This document shows, piece by piece, positions 5,615-15,546 of a stretch of DNA of 33,887 nucleotides. Each line of letters begins with the position of its first letter. Position 1 is the stretch's first letter. The position numbers and the translations under genes were made by a program. Below the pieces are notes generated by a model. It did not search any database. It was not told where the DNA came from and worked only from the letters and a program-made list of their open reading frames with translations. The DNA is taken from the IMG/VR virus record IMGVR_UViG_2740892429_000002, positions 1 through 33,887 of that record; one strand, given 5' to 3'. Source of the DNA: a virus (Duplodnaviria; Heunggongvirae; Uroviricota; Caudoviricetes).

Positions 5615-5742
5615 TTCGTTCTCCACTTTATATGCGCTGCACCGCGCTGAATTCGGGTAAAAGGAATCCCGCACCATCCGGCGATTATTGAGTTAATTAC
5701 GTTTCCATAAATGCCCCCGCAGGGGCATTTGCAGTAATGAAA

Positions 5743-6567
5743 TCAGGCGGTGAAAGTACCAATAAAGGTTTCTACTTTGCTGTCTTTGAATTTCTCAACA
5801 AGCAGATCACGAAATTCGTTAGCCATTTCTTCCTGCACTGCTTCCAGCTGAATAATGCGCAGAACCAGTACAGGACGATCGCCAGTGATAATGCTGAGGC
5901 GTAATTTAAATGGACGTTCTTTCAGACCTTCAAACGGAACGCATTTAAATTCAAATGCCACTGGCATAATATCTTTGGTTTTCGCTTCGACAGACTCCAT
6001 CAGGGAGCGTTTGCCGCTGAAGTCATTATCTTCAAAATCAGCGGTCTGGTTTGCTTCAATCGTGATTTTACGGACAGCCGCAGCCGCTTTTGTTGCCTGA
6101 ATAGCGTCACCATTAGCATCAAAGCCCACAAGGTAGTCGGCCCAGTCTTCAATCCATTCTGCCAGTGACTTCTGGGAATGACGCTCGCCGTTAACAGACA
6201 ACAGAGCAGAGAACGGTGCTGTCTTTTTCAGTTTGAGAGTGGCGGTGTTATCTGCGTGACCTGGTTCATCAATAGTACCCAGGTTAAGCACACTGACGGC
6301 TCGCATATTATCGGCATCGATAAAGCAGCGGGTGCCTTCATCTGCAAGATCTTTAGAATAACGGGTAAAGTCATCGATGCTGGCAGTGGAAAGCGCACCA
6401 CGGAAACGGAAGCGATTTAAATTAAATTTTTCCAGATCATGAATGCGGAAATTCTCAGGCAATGCCACAGCATCGGCACCAATCTTACTGATAATTTCAT
6501 TAACACCCTGAGCAGAAATAAGAGCATGGATTTGATTAATTGCGGTTGCGTCTAAGTTCTGAGACAT
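5743..6567 (-). CDS. DUF2303 / YfdQ-like protein
   Basis: 274 aa, GAGGA RBS. The N-terminus [11 protein letters not shown] and the size match my recollection of CPS-53 YfdQ. Confidence 0.6.
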
Positions 6568-6632
6568 AATAAGTCCTCACTATATAAAGATATTCAGTGA
6601 TGAGATAAATAATCAGTTAATTAAGAACGATA

Positions 6633-6995
6633 TTAATGACCTGCTGCGCGGAGTTTTCCGTCAGGTTCACCGGCAAGAGTCAGTAATTGTCCCTGGTCTT
6701 CCTGCAGAATAGTCAGGCGACCACCGCGATTGACATACATCGGCGTTTCGGTGGTGTCTTCTTCAGAAATTTTCCCGCGGTTAGTCGGGCGAACATATGA
6801 AAGTTTGTGTTTGATTTTCACACGGTTCTCATCAAACGGTTCGATTTCCAGGTTGAGCGAGACCTTACCTTTGGTTTTCGTGTTCATCACACCGGAAGCG
6901 ACTTCACTGAGAACAGCGCCGATTTTGGTTTCAAATACGCCGCCGTCCAGCTCCCCGATAAATGCCTGCACATCAGTACTGCGTTCGCTAGCCAT
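6633..6995 (-). CDS. hypothetical protein (120 aa), first gene of the early-left operon (YfdP-like)
   Basis: The track ORF extends into the leader. The Met at MASERSTDV has GAGGAG 7 nt upstream and gives 120 aa. Confidence 0.55.
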   Translation of the reverse strand: MASERSTDVQAFIGELDGGVFETKIGAVLSEVASGVMNTKTKGKVSLNLEIEPFDENRVKIKHKLSYVRPTNRGKISEEDTTETPMYVNRGGRLTILQEDQGQLLTLAGEPDGKLRAAGH

Positions 6996-7129
6996 TTTGC
7001 TGCTCCTCATCATATCGACCCTGCAAGGTCGGTTGGTTTCTCCACAAAACAGAGAAGAACACCTGCGGTGACTGCCGCCCGGATGGATTGGGTTATGAGC
7101 CCGTCGTCCGGTGATGCTCTTCTCTGTTT

Positions 7130-7178
7130 TGTAAAAAGAGCGGTACCAGCCGGAAGCAAGTGTACAAACTGGTACCGC
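7130..7178 (-). terminator. rho-independent terminator in the early-left leader
   Basis: On the minus strand, GCGGTACCAG ... CTGGTACCGC (perfect 10-bp arms) followed by UCUUUUUAC. Confidence 0.5.
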
Positions 7179-7620
7179 CAAAGCAGTGGCTGTTGTGGTG
7201 ACCGGTGCTGATCTCCGGCTTGCGGTTATTTCAGACTCTCACGGGCGTTTAATTGCCCCGCCGAACAGCTCTTTTCCGCAATAGCTGCAATGTCTTTCGC
7301 GCATCAGCCTGCGCATTCACCACAACGCTGAGAGCACTTAGCCAGTTACGGCACCACACTTTGTCGCGGTTCCATAAATGCCCTCATCGTTGCACCCTGG
7401 TCTCTTCCCAGGCGTCAAACCGAATCGCCACGCTGGTTAGGCGTCTTATCAGCATCCTCATTGACTTGCACATTCCGGCTACCTGGTTTGTCTGCTCGAG
7501 CAAGGAGTGGATTGTCCCCTTTAACGTCCCCAGACCGCTAACGACGCATGTGCCATACGCCGTGTTACAACCAAATTTTGTTAGGACCTTGTTTGTTGGT
7601 CTGGAAAGAAAGATAAAATG

Positions 7621-7662
7621 AAATTGCGTAATGTGCAAGTGTTTTGTTGCGAGATATGCAAT
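7621..7662. promoter_or_regulatory. OL-like operator pair / PL region
   Basis: Two 15-bp sites, TTGCGTAATGTGCAA and TTGCGAGATATGCAA (TTGC-N7-GCAA), 24 bp apart, the same pattern as at OR. Confidence 0.45.
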
Positions 7663-7671
7663 AGCGTGAGT

Positions 7672-7700
7672 AATGAAAAGCCACCTTCTGGTGGCTAATT
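7672..7700 (-). terminator. terminator downstream of the repressor gene
   Basis: On the minus strand, GCCACC-AGAA-GGUGGC followed by UUUUCAUU, directly after the cI-like stop. Confidence 0.55.
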
Positions 7701-7717
7701 GATGTTGAGGTAGGGGG

Positions 7718-8410
7718 TTAATTGTGTCGCTTAAGGGTTTGTGACTGACTGATTAAGACCTTTCCAAAGACCATAAACCGGTGTTCGTTTTCGCTGGTAA
7801 TTCCCCATTCGCGGTAAATCTGATTATCAGAAATTACCAGCAGTTTATCAGGTATCATTTGCAGTCGTTTGACGTAAATTTTATCATCAAAACCAAATAC
7901 ATATATACCATCCCCATCAAACTGATTGATACTGATATCAACGAAGATGAGATCTCCTGGCTCAATGGTTGGACACATACTGTCCCCACGAACGTTGATA
8001 ACTTTAATGTGATTTGCTGGTCGTCCACCAAACATCGATACAGCATTATCAGTTCTGTATTCAATGGCATGAATCACATCAATGACATCACCGCCCTGGA
8101 TAAGGCCATTTCCCGCACTGGCACTGACATCCAGCATTTCAATACGGAATACATCCTTCACCTGCGCAACATCCTCACTAATACTGTTTTTACATACAGT
8201 ATTACTTTTGAGGTCTGAGGTAAAGAGATCAGCAATATCAACACCTAAGCTCCTGGCAATATTACTCAGGGCTTGTTCAGTGAATTGTTTCTGCTTACCT
8301 GTTTCGAGGCGCGAGATATTCGCCGCATCCACTCCTATTGCTTCAGCGAGATCGGCGATTTTCATGTTCTTCGCCTGGCGAAGTTGTCTGACTCGATTTC
8401 CTATGTTCAT
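7718..8410 (-). CDS. cI: CI-like prophage repressor (HTH_XRE plus S24 LexA-type peptidase)
   Basis: 230 aa; N-terminal HTH (IADLAEAIGVDAANISRLETG), C-terminal GDSMCPTI serine motif and KR dyad. Divergent from cro across an operator-rich intergenic region. Confidence 0.9.
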   Translation of the reverse strand: MNIGNRVRQLRQAKNMKIADLAEAIGVDAANISRLETGKQKQFTEQALSNIARSLGVDIADLFTSDLKSNTVCKNSISEDVAQVKDVFRIEMLDVSASAGNGLIQGGDVIDVIHAIEYRTDNAVSMFGGRPANHIKVINVRGDSMCPTIEPGDLIFVDISINQFDGDGIYVFGFDDKIYVKRLQMIPDKLLVISDNQIYREWGITSENEHRFMVFGKVLISQSQTLKRHN

Positions 8411-8507
8411 GCGTTTATTACATTTCTTTATTGCGCGTTAAGCAAATCAACTTGCGCAAAATATTTGCGTGAAATAATATGCTCATCACGCAATATGTGG
8501 AGGTTAT
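8411..8507. promoter_or_regulatory. OR operators with divergent PRM/PR promoters
   Basis: TTGCGCGTTAAGCAA (8431-8445), near-palindrome CGCAAAATATTTGCG, and TGCGTGA...TCACGCA. Candidate PR -35 TTGCGC (about 8452) and -10 TAATAT (about 8475). No SD precedes the cI ATG. Confidence 0.55.
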
Positions 8508-8768
8508 ATGCAATCACCATTACGGAATGTGCGTAAGGCGCACGGATTTACTTTGCAGCATGTTGCTGCGGGCGTTCAGGTCAATCCAGCGACGCTGAGT
8601 CGTATTGAAAGACTGGAACAAATTCCATCTATCGATCTTGCAGAACGTCTGGCCAATTTTTTTAAGGGTGAAATCAGCGAAATGCAGATTCTTTATCCGG
8701 CACGTTTTCAATCTAGCCAAAACCAGAATGGGTTTAAACCACAGGAACAGGAGGTAAGCCGTGGGTAA
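8508..8768 (+). CDS. cro: Cro-like HTH regulator
   Basis: 86 aa with HTH_XRE motif (LQHVAAGVQVNPATLSRIE), GGAGG RBS, first rightward gene. Confidence 0.75.
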   Translation: MQSPLRNVRKAHGFTLQHVAAGVQVNPATLSRIERLEQIPSIDLAERLANFFKGEISEMQILYPARFQSSQNQNGFKPQEQEVSRG

Positions 8769-9312
8769 GCATCATTGGAAAGTGGAAAAACAACCTGAAT
8801 GGTACGTGAAAGCTGTCAGAAAAACTATCGCGGCATTGCCTGGGGGTTACGCTGAAGCTGCTGACTGGCTGGATGTAACAGAGAACGCTTTATTCAACCG
8901 CCTTCGTGCAGATGGCGATCAGATTTTCCCGCTGGGATGGGCAATGGTTTTACAGCGCGCGGCTGGCACTCACTACATTGCGGATGCTGTCGCACAGTCT
9001 GCTGGTGGGGTGTTCGTATCGCTTCCTGAAATTGAGGAAGTAGAGAACGCCGATATAAACCAGCGCCTGCTGGAAGTCATCGAACAGATCGGGAATTACT
9101 CAAAGCAGATTCGTTCGGCAATCGAAGATGGGGTCGTGGAGCCACACGAGCAGACAGCAATTAATGATGAGTTGTATCTGTCAATTTCGAAGCTCCAGGA
9201 GCATGCAGCACTGGTCTACAAAATCTTCTGCGCTCCAGAAAAGAGTGACGCCCGCGAGTGTGCAGCTCCGGGCGTCGTGGCGTTTTGTGTCTGTGGAGAA
9301 ACTAACGCATGA
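8761..9312 (+). CDS. CII-position regulatory protein (CII/YdaT-like)
   Basis: 183 aa, GTG start after AGGAGG. The position after cro suggests a lysogeny-establishment regulator; family assignment is uncertain. Confidence 0.45.
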   Translation: MGKHHWKVEKQPEWYVKAVRKTIAALPGGYAEAADWLDVTENALFNRLRADGDQIFPLGWAMVLQRAAGTHYIADAVAQSAGGVFVSLPEIEEVENADINQRLLEVIEQIGNYSKQIRSAIEDGVVEPHEQTAINDELYLSISKLQEHAALVYKIFCAPEKSDARECAAPGVVAFCVCGETNA

Positions 9313-9722
9313 ACAGTTTAACGGCAAATAACCGTTTGTCGCAACAGCTGGTGGTCAGTGTCGCTGAACACCTGTTGTTACGGCATGAATGCAGATTACC
9401 AAATCACTTGGCTGTAAGTAACCACAGAGAACTTTACCTGACTGTGGGGGGCGAGTTGTGCAGGAACTTAACCGCTGGTTTCGTGACGGAAGAGGGCTTT
9501 ATGTCCATGTTATTCGTTGGGAGCCAGAAACACAGCGCGTTATCTATCTTCGCAAAGACTACCCGCATGAGTGCTTTAGTCCTTTGTGGAAATTCAGGCG
9601 TGATTTTGTTGAGTGTGAAGGACCACCAGCACATTGATTCTGCCATTCCGGGACGTTACACTGTTCAGGCACCTTATAAAGCGGGTGCCGGGCGTGGAAA
9701 CTCGGAATTCACCAAAGCGCAC

Positions 9723-9746
9723 AACCGCGCTCTTGCGGTTTTTTTG
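9723..9746 (+). terminator. intrinsic terminator in the early-right operon
   Basis: AACCGC-GCTCTT-GCGGTT followed by TTTTTTT. Confidence 0.5.
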
Positions 9747-9914
9747 TGTAATGAGCAGCATTACGCCCAAATTATGGTGGGGCGTGCAGGGCCAACTTCG
9801 GTTGGGCCGGGTTCTTTGGTGACCGGTATTTCCACCCCTGTACGTCTCACCACCAATAAGGTCGTGGAAAGCCTTGGTGGTGAGTTATTAAAAATCACCA
9901 AAGAGGCTGCCATC

Positions 9915-10460
9915 ATGGCTACGATCCCAACCCTCACTCAACCTGAAATTGCCATCGTTGATGGTCAGGCTGTTACTTCATCCCTGGCTGTTGCCAACTT
10001 CTTCTCCAAACGTCATGACGATGTACTGAAAAAGATCCGCACGCTTGAATGCTCTGCATCATTCACTTCCCGCAATTTTTCGGCGAGTGATTACACCGAT
10101 TGCACAGGCCGCAAACTACCTTGCTATCAAATAACCCGCGACGGCTTTGCGTTTCTTGCTATGGGTTTCACGGGTAAACGTGCTGCCCAGTTCAAAGAGG
10201 CATACATCAATGCCTTTAACCAGATGGAGAAACAGCTTTCAAATCCCTCTGTACTGAGCGACGTTGCACATAACGCCAGCGTTCTCTATTCCTACATTTC
10301 ATCAATTCATCAGGTCTGGCTGCAGCAGCTTTATCCTATGTTGGCAAAAGCCGAATCTCCGCTGGCTGTTAGCTTGTATGACTATATTAATGATGCTTCG
10401 GCACTGGCCTGCCTCATAAATTTGTCGCTGAACCCTTCAGAGGTAAGGGGGCGCAAATGA
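9915..10460 (+). CDS. Rha-family phage regulatory protein
   Basis: Internal ATG (AAGAGG upstream) of the long track ORF. The N-terminal motif TSSLAVANFFSKRHDDVLKKIRTL is the Rha signature. Confidence 0.75.
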   Translation: MATIPTLTQPEIAIVDGQAVTSSLAVANFFSKRHDDVLKKIRTLECSASFTSRNFSASDYTDCTGRKLPCYQITRDGFAFLAMGFTGKRAAQFKEAYINAFNQMEKQLSNPSVLSDVAHNASVLYSYISSIHQVWLQQLYPMLAKAESPLAVSLYDYINDASALACLINLSLNPSEVRGRK

Positions 10461-15163: not shown

Positions 15164-15180
15164 TTTTGTGGAGAAAGTTG

Positions 15181-15546
15181 ATGCGTGATATTCAAATGGT
15201 TCTTGAACGTTGGGGGGCATGGGTGGCAAATAATCACGAGGATGTCACCTGGTCGTCTATTGCTGCAGGATTTAAAGGACTAATCCCTTCAAAAGTAAAA
15301 TCCCGCCCGCAATGTTGTGACGATGACGCGATGATCATTTGTGGGTGCATGGCTCGCCTGAAAAAGAACAACAGCGATTTGCACGATTTATTAGTGGATT
15401 ATTATGTAGGTGGTATGACGTTTATGGCGCTTGCCCGTAAACATGGGCGTTCTGATTGCTGGGTTGGGCGTTTATTGCAAAAGGCTGAAGGTGTAGTTGA
15501 TGGCATGTTAATGATGTTAGAAATTGAGCTAGAGATGGATCGTTAG
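15181..15546 (+). CDS. Q: late-gene antiterminator Q
   Basis: ATG after [43 protein letters not shown] matches the Q family of phage 82/DLP12 (QuuD-like) as I recall it. Confidence 0.75.

Follow-up and report, generated by a model that had tools for sequence, protein, structure and literature searches.

Conserved structured RNAs in the predicted early-left leader of a lambdoid prophage without a recognisable N gene

How is the early-left operon of a lambdoid phage read when no N gene is present to carry transcription past the terminators of its leader? Lambdoid phages without an N gene include the Shiga-toxin 2c phages, the serotype-converting Shigella phages SfV, SfII and SfIV, Salmonella phage ST64B and the laboratory phage LLS. 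The reading of early operons in N-less phages is an acknowledged gap (PMC12315714). The question arises at a region of 722 bases (positions 6996–7717) separating the repressor gene from the first early-left gene, which is yfdP-like, in a lambdoid prophage of the mEp460/cdtI/SfV/Stx2c-phage type (IMG/VR record IMGVR_UViG_2740892429_000002, positions 1 to 33,887; this whole stretch of 33,887 nt is hereafter called the window). The relevant transcript is that of the minus strand, starting from the early-left promoter (pL). A preliminary description, made from the letters of the DNA, reported stacked terminator hairpins in a leader lacking both a credible open reading frame (ORF) and an N-like protein, and suggested an RNA-based mechanism like that of HK022 put. 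The sequence features it listed are real and non-random, and its interpretation held in part: the region is non-coding and its first hairpin is a terminator, but neither the stacking of terminators nor the relationship to put was sustained. We favour, at not quite even confidence, the reading that this is the untranslated pL leader of a prophage of the SfV/ST64B/mEp460/LLS type, in which separable RNA modules stand in place of an N gene, a terminator (T1) serving attenuation or insulation and a three-way-junction RNA (element X) serving processing or stability.

Read along the minus strand, the region runs from the repressor terminator through pL and its operators (oL), module M1, a small RNA (sRNA-17) ending in T1, element X and a small hairpin to the ribosome-binding site, as follows.

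7672–7696, minus strand: intrinsic terminator of the repressor gene, from a terminator scan (stem 7696–7679, AGCCACC/GGUGGCU, then the U-run UUUUCAUUAC)
7610–7661, minus strand: predicted pL and oL operators (−35 TTGCAC at 7638–7633, −10 TATCTT at 7615–7610)
ca. 7566–7393 (core) and ca. 7582–7330 (full), minus strand: M1, a conserved structured RNA, from about +36 of the predicted pL transcript
7134–7326, minus strand: sRNA-17 homolog (193 nt), with T1 at its 3′ end
7133–7179, minus strand: T1, intrinsic terminator (hairpin runs 7179–7133), stem GCGGUACCAG/CUGGUACCGC (also given as GGCGGUACCAG/CUGGUACCGC)
7033–7134, minus strand: element X, a three-way junction with the tail GGAGAAACC
7133–7113 and 7063–7043, minus strand: stem P1 of element X, holding the 15-nt arms
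7111–7079, minus strand: stem P2 of element X
7090–7103, minus strand: apex of P2, CGGGCUCAUAACCC, with 14-nt identity to positions 29–42 of the E. coli initiator tRNA-fMet
7078–7065, minus strand: stem P3 of element X
7016–7031, minus strand: small hairpin CGACC-UUGCAG-GGUCG, after element X and before the ribosome-binding site
7008–7003, minus strand: Shine-Dalgarno sequence GAGGAG
6633–6995, minus strand: yfdP-like first early-left gene, with its ATG at 6995

The second long hairpin had been taken for a further terminator, with perfect 15-nt arms and a U-rich 3′ side. The arms are present as a perfect inverted repeat formed by ACAAAACAGAGAAGA (7132–7118, transcript strand) and TCTTCTCTGTTTTGT (7058–7044), compared with a longest perfect repeat of 11 nt in 300 dinucleotide shuffles of 6996–7717. 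The terminator shape is not: the U-rich stretch is part of the 3′ arm and is followed by GGAGAAACC, with no U-tail. This hairpin is instead part of a conserved three-way-junction RNA, element X. Homologs were collected from yfdP-relative loci of 31 genomes (Enterobacterales and beyond) and from 119 viral contigs carrying the motif GGCTCATWMCCCAATC, and 39 non-redundant sequences were aligned for an RNAalifold consensus. The consensus contained 31 pairs, 13 of them with compensatory changes. In it, P1 (19 pairs with two 1×1 mismatches; 22 uninterrupted pairs predicted in the window) encloses P2, whose apex is invariant, and P3, which varies in sequence and in length (14–40 nt). Pairing was found in 97% of the alignment cells, against 37–56% when the partners were slid by 1–3 columns, and the 13 covarying pairs compared with 6.7 ± 1.3 in shuffles, none of the 500 reaching the observed values. 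The covariance analysis across relatives that the preliminary description had proposed thus supports the structure of the second hairpin. The minus-strand leader as a whole folded better than shuffled sequences (z = −3.7).

The covariance model of element X scored 110.6 bits on the minus strand of the window and 35.1 bits on the plus strand, with G-U pairs favouring the leftward transcript, and no second copy was found in the 33.9-kb window (next-best match, 14 bits). The same asymmetry was seen across related loci, here numbered with the prefix L (sense 77–120 bits versus antisense 33–42 bits). Where loci had been picked by protein homology alone, element X was present in 19, always as a single copy, on the sense strand and immediately before the gene. 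In 92 loci the next gene is yfdP-like, in 16 it is RdgC-like, in six YfdR-like and in one Xis-like; therefore, element X belongs to the leader of the operon and not to one gene. An N-terminal extension of YfdP was considered, as the frame is open in some genomes, and was rejected because the length of element X (101–129 nt) varies in steps that are not multiples of three, and because in Phytobacter and Kosakonia the frame does not stay the same. Element X starts nearly always inside the U-tract of a terminator, in the window inside that of T1. Locus L133, without T1, has it approximately 30 nt after a pL-like promoter/operator. Thus, either a terminator or a promoter constantly precedes it. 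The order in L110 and in phage LLS (L162) is repressor, terminator, pL, sRNA-17-like module, T1, element X and yfdP, with no room for a protein gene in the leader. A shorter variant (L072) has P1 reduced to 6 bp and P2 kept. The small hairpin at 7016–7031 covaries with CGGCGG-UGGCA-GCCGCC in other genera.

Searches of reference collections did not place element X in a described family. Rfam 15 gave no match at E ≤ 1 for positions 6400–9400, and the matches at gathering score in the whole window were isrK and C4 only (9669–9857). ARAGORN found no tRNA or tmRNA, plasmid matches were only prophage-like or misassigned records that added no new context, and literature searches on the element X and sRNA-17 sequences or on ST64B small RNAs returned nothing relevant. 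A possible right-hand copy of element X was considered at 9292–9308 (plus strand), where the 15-nt TGTGGAGAAACTAAC matches the consensus of the element X tail. This string lies at the end of the CII-like gene and also stands before other start codons (GGAG, 7–10 nt, ATG), and it recurs in L021, L087, L109 and L114; it is best read as a ribosome-binding or module-junction sequence shared within the phage group, not as a nutR-like site.

Two kinds of divergent leader were observed among the related loci. In Providencia rustigianii (L029, 2121–2306), a CsrA homolog (MLILTRRAGETVVIGDDVKV...) lies directly upstream of a terminator and a long-stem element preceding the yfdP homolog; the long P1-like stem is kept in this element, and the tRNA-like P2 apex is absent. 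In two E. coli loci (L005 and L013), the leader upstream of yfdP is replaced by tandem TGACGGGTCAGATTTTGA-like repeats resembling replication-origin iterons, which suggests a deletion joint in a cryptic prophage.

If element X is not translated, is an N-like protein encoded elsewhere in the leader? The region 6996–7717 is non-coding. The absence of a credible ORF had been stated before, and comparison with homologs bore it out, as the ORFs of the leader are interrupted there by stops or frameshifts. An 84-aa ORF (7384–7638) starts with a TTG at base 1 of the predicted pL −35/operator, in agreement with the earlier remark that it begins inside the operator. Among 26 homologous leaders, it contains internal stops in 12 and frameshifts in five, and it matches no Pfam or PHROG family. 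The case for a small N-like protein rests mainly with a 36-aa ORF (7249–7359) ending in LLRKRAVRRGN, the sole arginine-rich small ORF of the early region. However, this ORF is intact only in eight near-identical leaders of the 26, its codon changes are 37 synonymous versus 391 non-synonymous, and in L017 and Ayreon-type phages the sequence beneath it is conserved as RNA hairpins whose reading content differs. That either ORF encodes an N-like protein is therefore highly improbable, and the idea is close to refuted.

The wider survey agreed with this result. In approximately 140 related loci, the 1 kb upstream of element X contained no recurring arginine-rich ORF, and the reported lack of an arginine-rich N-like protein extends from the window to these loci: a conserved N-like protein was looked for in the homologs and none was found. 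Nor was a lambda-type pair of N and nut recognised: no N protein with an arginine-rich motif was found, the first gene after the leader being yfdP-, RdgC-, YfdR- or Xis-like, and the leader has no conserved boxA and no visible boxB-like 5-bp stem with a GAAAA-type loop. Of 5426 complete E. coli genomes, 2644 match part of the leader and 798 match at least 80% of it. Where the whole region is present, in the 25 E. coli genomes listed, the RefSeq annotation is blank across the match, and in near-identical phages the annotators call contradictory ORFs on both strands. An N homolog is absent from the phage group of LLS, ST64B and phiNP, for which put has been speculated (PMC12315714). All three of these phages carry element X.

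The first hairpin has the shape that had been described, that of a terminator with a 10-bp stem and a U-tail. T1 has a 19-nt loop, the tail UCUUUUU and a predicted energy of −21.2 kcal/mol, and it combines the properties of an intrinsic terminator: a G+C-rich hairpin, a U-tract on the transcribed strand and conservation in homologs. A hairpin with a T-run abuts element X in 84 of 94 distinct upstream contexts. The stems vary and yet stay complementary (GCGGUACCAG/CUGGUACCGC, GCGGCAUCUG/AGGAUGCCGC, UGCCCAUCAC/..GGUGGGCA and others). T1 is thus a conserved intrinsic terminator in the path of pL transcription. The boxA-like string CGCTCTT (7142–7136) consists of the 3′ arm and U-tract of T1, just as the preliminary description had suspected in attributing it to terminator composition, and it is not conserved, the homologs reading CCGCCCTTTTT or CCGCAATTTTTT.

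Other candidate signals near T1 were set aside. GUGCUCU strings at module junctions and in the 3′ arm of P1 are the 3′ halves of hairpins and do not represent a conserved single-stranded boxA. The 5′ arm of T1 contains GGCGGTAC, which resembles the RfaH ops site (GGCGGTAG); by inspection, the site was rejected, as it lacks the C3:G8 pair and other genera differ in these positions. Nascent RNA folds of 52 leaders showed no consistent upstream partner of the T1 5′ arm that could form an antiterminator helix competing with T1.

T1 also marks the end of an RNA that is already known. A 193-nt RNA, sRNA-17, has been described from an mEp460-like prophage of E. coli K1 RS218; its two ends were mapped by rapid amplification of cDNA ends (RACE), it gave a signal on Northern blots, and it is detectable in lysogens (PMC7719688). 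In the supplementary alignment of that paper, on which the mapping rests, the published RNA corresponds to positions 7326–7134 of the window, with the same length of 193 nt, the same 3′ terminator and matching row start and end. Therefore, T1 is the terminator of sRNA-17, a connection that the preliminary description, correct on the terminator itself, had missed. The 5′ segment GUUGUGGUG of sRNA-17 pairs with CACCACAAC just upstream of T1. The sRNA-17 module occurs in several variants, which have in common the 5′ sequence GUUGUGGU(G)AAU, the pairing 3′ sequence CACCACAAC and T1, and its boundary is conserved across phages. T1 and sRNA-17 are therefore not new as such, whereas neither their placement in the pL leader nor the motifs element X and M1 were found described in Rfam or in the papers searched. 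The sRNA-17 paper presents a stand-alone, ArcA-regulated virulence small RNA, with no pL-leader placement, no T1 as an early-left attenuator, no M1 and no element X (PMC7719688).

Where does the transcript that contains sRNA-17 begin? The predicted oL operators are TTGC-N7-GCAA at 7661–7647 and 7638–7624, and the right operator (oR, 8429–8495) carries the same TTGC..GCAA half-sites. From the letters of these sites, pL would lie as listed above and its transcript would start near 7602. Homology between phages with different repressors and immunity starts at approximately 7582, a short way downstream of the predicted pL. The leader also includes the terminator of the repressor gene itself, which corrects the preliminary description, and the same arrangement is annotated in phage Ayreon and in SfV. 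A GTTA-N12-GTTA direct repeat at 7564–7583 (plus strand) fits the ArcA-site rule given in the sRNA-17 paper (PMC7719688). On the predicted pL transcript it would occupy approximately +18 to +39, away from the mapped 5′ end of sRNA-17. Given this ArcA-type motif just downstream of the predicted pL start, the arrangement suggests that sRNA-17 is cut from, or co-transcribed with, the pL leader. A different immunity type was seen in L110 (7990–8060; also in L123 and L153), where pL (TTGACA/TACATT) lies within the 18-bp palindrome ATGTAGGATAACCAACAT..ATGTTGGATATCCTACAT, and in leaders of this type the sRNA-17 module starts a few bases from the predicted transcript start.

Between pL and sRNA-17 lies M1. 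An alignment of 11 sequences from several genera gave 27 predicted pairs, nine with compensatory changes. The apex of its hairpin H1 (7562–7542), UAUGGCACAUG, is invariant, while the base covaries (CGGCG/CGUCG versus CGCUG/CAGCG); invariant single-stranded blocks include AAUGUGCAAG, CACCAGCGUGGCGA and GGGAAGAG. M1 has no Rfam match. It occurs in only about one quarter of the leaders bearing element X and is absent, for example, from L110 and LLS. The leader is a string of exchangeable RNA modules, of which element X is the constant part.

From these parts, a working of the leader can be proposed. Most leftward transcripts would stop at T1 and give sRNA-17, leaving the early-left genes silent in the lysogen, and a fraction would read through T1 with no dedicated N-like protein. 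The read-through RNA would fold into element X immediately after the U-tract. P1 (19–22 bp) could then act as a processing or stability element, a target of RNase III or RNase E for cleavage or protection, and its processing might separate the small RNA from the mRNA and set the 5′ end of the operon as well as translation of the first gene, much like the RNase III hairpin in the lambda N leader. Alternatively, element X may be a factor-binding leader on read-through transcripts. With 22 predicted contiguous pairs, P1 reaches the near-continuous double-stranded length (approximately 20 bp or more) of RNase III processing hairpins of the lambda N-leader or T7 type. Because only a single weak terminator-like hairpin (5731–5708) lies between element X and the operon-end terminator (1510–1485), a processive system is not obviously required.

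The behaviour of a deletion mutant bears on T1. Upon deletion of sRNA-17 in RS218, the top two increases were those of the genes next downstream, yfdP (0.5 to 47 reads) and yfdR (0 to 8.5 reads) (PMC7719688). This rise is consistent with T1 blocking read-through or insulating the operon. It also admits a different explanation, in which sRNA-17 and T1 make up an RNA device for immunity or attenuation, comparable to P4 CI or P1 C4: in the lysogen, the small RNA, made or processed from the leader, would pair with repeated complementary segments of the nascent leader, enforce termination and keep the early-left genes off. The approximately 96-fold rise of yfdP, the rise of yfdR and the detection of sRNA-17 in lysogens (PMC7719688) fit such a device. 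Repeated GUUGUGG/CACAAC segments at 7326–7318, at approximately 7204–7196 and in both arms of P1 could serve as its pairing sites, and the same phage has a C4 antisense RNA in its early-right operon. However, these segments are only 6–9 nt long and mainly form local stems, and no consistent alternative pairing with the T1 5′ arm was found. Moreover, T1 was lost in cis with the deletion, which also introduced a resistance cassette, and the parts of the paper considered here give no result for trans-complementation of yfdP or yfdR by sRNA-17 (PMC7719688). Taken together, an immunity device is improbable.

Attenuation at T1 with processing at element X, which we prefer, also faces several difficulties. 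The removal of T1 in cis makes the rise of yfdP in the mutant ambiguous for this reading as well, and sRNA-17 may owe its 5′ end to processing rather than to the start of transcription. Element X retains approximately 85–90% nucleotide identity across genera, compared with 57–76% amino-acid identity in the adjacent protein. A simple processing hairpin leaves this excess conservation unexplained, as it does the copy of the tRNA-fMet anticodon arm in P2. Finally, the LLS leader has two terminator-like sites (hairpin and U-run; 1498–1540 and 1774–1805) before element X; given that LLS plaques on K-12, passive leakage through both would give low expression.

Could the leader instead contain an RNA antiterminator? 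The put-like mechanism suggested in the preliminary description was assessed with a covariance model, because put is not in Rfam and a scan of the HK022 immunity region there finds nothing. The model was built from eight putL/putR RNAs of HK022, HK639, CobraSix, S9-5, phiEt88 and PdC23, with a two-stem consensus and seven covarying pairs; the features sought were stem I (CGGCS/SGUCG) and stem II with GGCGGGYUCAGGAUGA..GGCAAU. It scored its own eight training sequences at 67–100 bits. The best hit in the window reached 9.2 bits (E = 0.47) at 9310–9402 on the plus strand, outside the leader, with none in the leader, and none of 66 loci bearing element X gave a match. Conversely, the put phages fetched contain no element X. 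The paired arrangement of putL and putR is not seen either, element X being single in the window. Hairpin H1 of M1 was considered as a stem I of put, as ACGGCG and CAUGCGUCG are common to it and putL, but the model rejects the region. The leader thus does not belong to the put family.

By analogy, a put-like function of an RNA unrelated to put is possible. Element X or M1 would then be a cis-acting RNA antiterminator, modifying RNA polymerase so that pL transcription ignores terminators and Rho, and replacing N and nut in this phage group without homology to put. Several observations favour this idea. Element X occupies the nutL/putL position as a universal element of the pL leader, approximately 30 nt from the promoter in L133, and its P2 and P3 stand side by side like the hairpins of put. 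The phages that carry it have neither an N-like ORF nor put, and the very high conservation of its sequence suggests that it contacts host machinery that is itself conserved. In addition, the leaders hold terminators (T1 here, two in LLS), and M1, located upstream of T1, could in principle act on it. However, element X is transcribed after T1 and so cannot suppress it, and only one weak terminator-like hairpin follows it inside the operon. It is a single copy with no early-right counterpart, whereas put and nut occur in both operons. M1 is absent from many phages with T1 and element X, and neither RNA matches the put model. We therefore regard an unrelated RNA antiterminator as unlikely, although it has more in its favour than the other alternatives weighed here. 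Somewhat less likely, in our judgement, is the more general proposal that element X represents a new class of leader RNA that replaces N/nut and put in the SfV/ST64B/mEp460/LLS group by acting on conserved host machinery: it would either modify RNA polymerase or block Rho for the early-left operon, or engage, through its copy of the anticodon arm, a tRNA-fMet-recognising factor (MetRS, a VapC-type nuclease or the ribosomal P site with IF3).

The last of these possibilities stems from the apex of P2. The stretch resembling tRNA-fMet comprises three G-C pairs and the 7-nt loop CUCAUAA with U33, the anticodon CAU and a purine at position 37, in the same hairpin register as in the tRNA, whose sequence was confirmed in all 5426 E. 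coli genomes. None of the 39 aligned sequences varies in the columns GGCUCAU..CCCAAUC. A match of at least 14 nt to tRNA-fMet arose in one of 200 shuffled windows, and the real match falls on the most conserved 18 nt of element X. The exact arm GGG-CUCAUAA-CCC is present in the window and in 24 of 41 variants; 11 of the 41 have U at position 37 or another change at loop positions 37–38 (CUCAUUC, CUCAUUA or CUCAUAC), and six weaken the third G-C pair.

Element X might accordingly act by mimicking the tRNA-fMet anticodon arm, as a decoy or binding site for a factor such as MetRS, a tRNA-fMet-cleaving nuclease of the VapC type, or the P site of the 30S subunit with IF3, and thereby protect or control translation initiation early in infection. 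The identity of 14 nt in register at an invariant apex, the retention of the arm in most of the variants and the persistence of P2 in L072, where P1 is only 6 bp, are in keeping with mimicry, and early-left operons are typical sites of counter-defence functions. However, the resemblance was recognised after the fact. A match of this length to this one tRNA arises in approximately 0.5% of shuffles, and there are approximately 40 tRNA species. The altered loops and weakened pairs also count against mimicry, as do the Providencia loci that have a long P1-like stem without this loop, and literature precedent for a tRNA-fMet mimic or decoy was not found. Mimicry is thus quite improbable as the mode of action, and the resemblance is a lead rather than a result.

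Comparison with known systems helps to place the leader. In phage lambda, the pL leader comprises nutL, an RNase III hairpin and N, with a long hairpin directly upstream of the first ribosome-binding site. The present leader and the lambda N leader are alike in being untranslated from pL to the first early-left gene and in having a long hairpin before the first ribosome-binding site. Unlike that of lambda, this leader has no N gene, conserved boxA or boxB, it carries a terminator and a small RNA, and its hairpin is a sequence-conserved three-way junction. Element X resembles HK022 and HK639 put as a strongly conserved, non-coding pL-leader RNA with adjacent hairpins in N-less lambdoid phages, but it differs from put in the lack of a model match, in its single copy instead of a left/right pair and in its location downstream of a leader terminator. 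P1/P7 C4, P4 CI and Gifsy-1 IsrK are likewise leader-derived phage small RNAs that control downstream expression by termination or translation. Homologs of C4 and IsrK occur in the early-right operon of this phage, whereas sRNA-17 and element X match none of these Rfam families and are likened to them by leader position. Among cellular leaders, the metY-nusA-infB leader of E. coli places terminators and an RNase III hairpin between a stable RNA, tRNA-fMet2, and the mRNA, and in thrS the mRNA leader serves as an operator that imitates the anticodon arm of a tRNA. Unlike both, element X copies only the anticodon arm of tRNA-fMet, within a three-way junction of a phage leader.

The genes around the leader are those of a lambdoid early region.

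7718–8410, minus strand: cI-like repressor
8508–8768, plus strand: cro
8761–9312, plus strand: CII-like activator
15166–15546: Q antiterminator, with a Rha-type antirepressor between it and the CII-like gene
1510–1485, minus strand: strong terminator that closes the early-left operon

The N-termini of homologs align with the ATG of the yfdP-like gene at 6995. From there, the early-left operon continues on the minus strand through yfdQ/DUF2303, yfdR (HD domain) and other genes to the excisionase gene (1514–1822). The weak hairpin inside this operon (5708–5731, minus strand) lies between yfdQ and yfdR, has the form AAAUGCCCC-UGC-GGGGGCAUUU with a weak U-tract, and is called a terminator in phage Ayreon.

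On the early-right side, the Rfam matches at gathering score were isrK (9669–9745, plus strand, 62.5 bits) and C4 antisense RNA (9770–9857, plus strand, 83.6 bits). Both lie within a stretch of approximately 600 nt between the CII-like gene and the Rha antirepressor, together with a terminator-like hairpin (9723–9750); therefore, the early-right operon has an RNA control module of the P1/P7 type. A 383-aa ORF (9309–10460, plus strand) is annotated as ‘Rha’ in mEp460. Its true start is probably near 9918 (MATIPTLTQPE...), as the first approximately 200 codons overlie the isrK/C4 RNA genes and look non-protein-like. A Pfam ‘Ash’ match to residues 117–213 may be an artefact of such ORFs.

For the N-less lambdoid phages, these results mean that their pL leaders have in common a defined set of structured RNAs, and that a published ‘virulence’ small RNA is tied to an early-left attenuator of the phage. 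There is a modest chance that element X is mechanistically new. If it proved to be only a processing hairpin, its description would still be a useful annotation of a very common prophage region; if it acts as an antiterminator, or as a tRNA-fMet mimic with a binding partner, it would represent a new mechanism.

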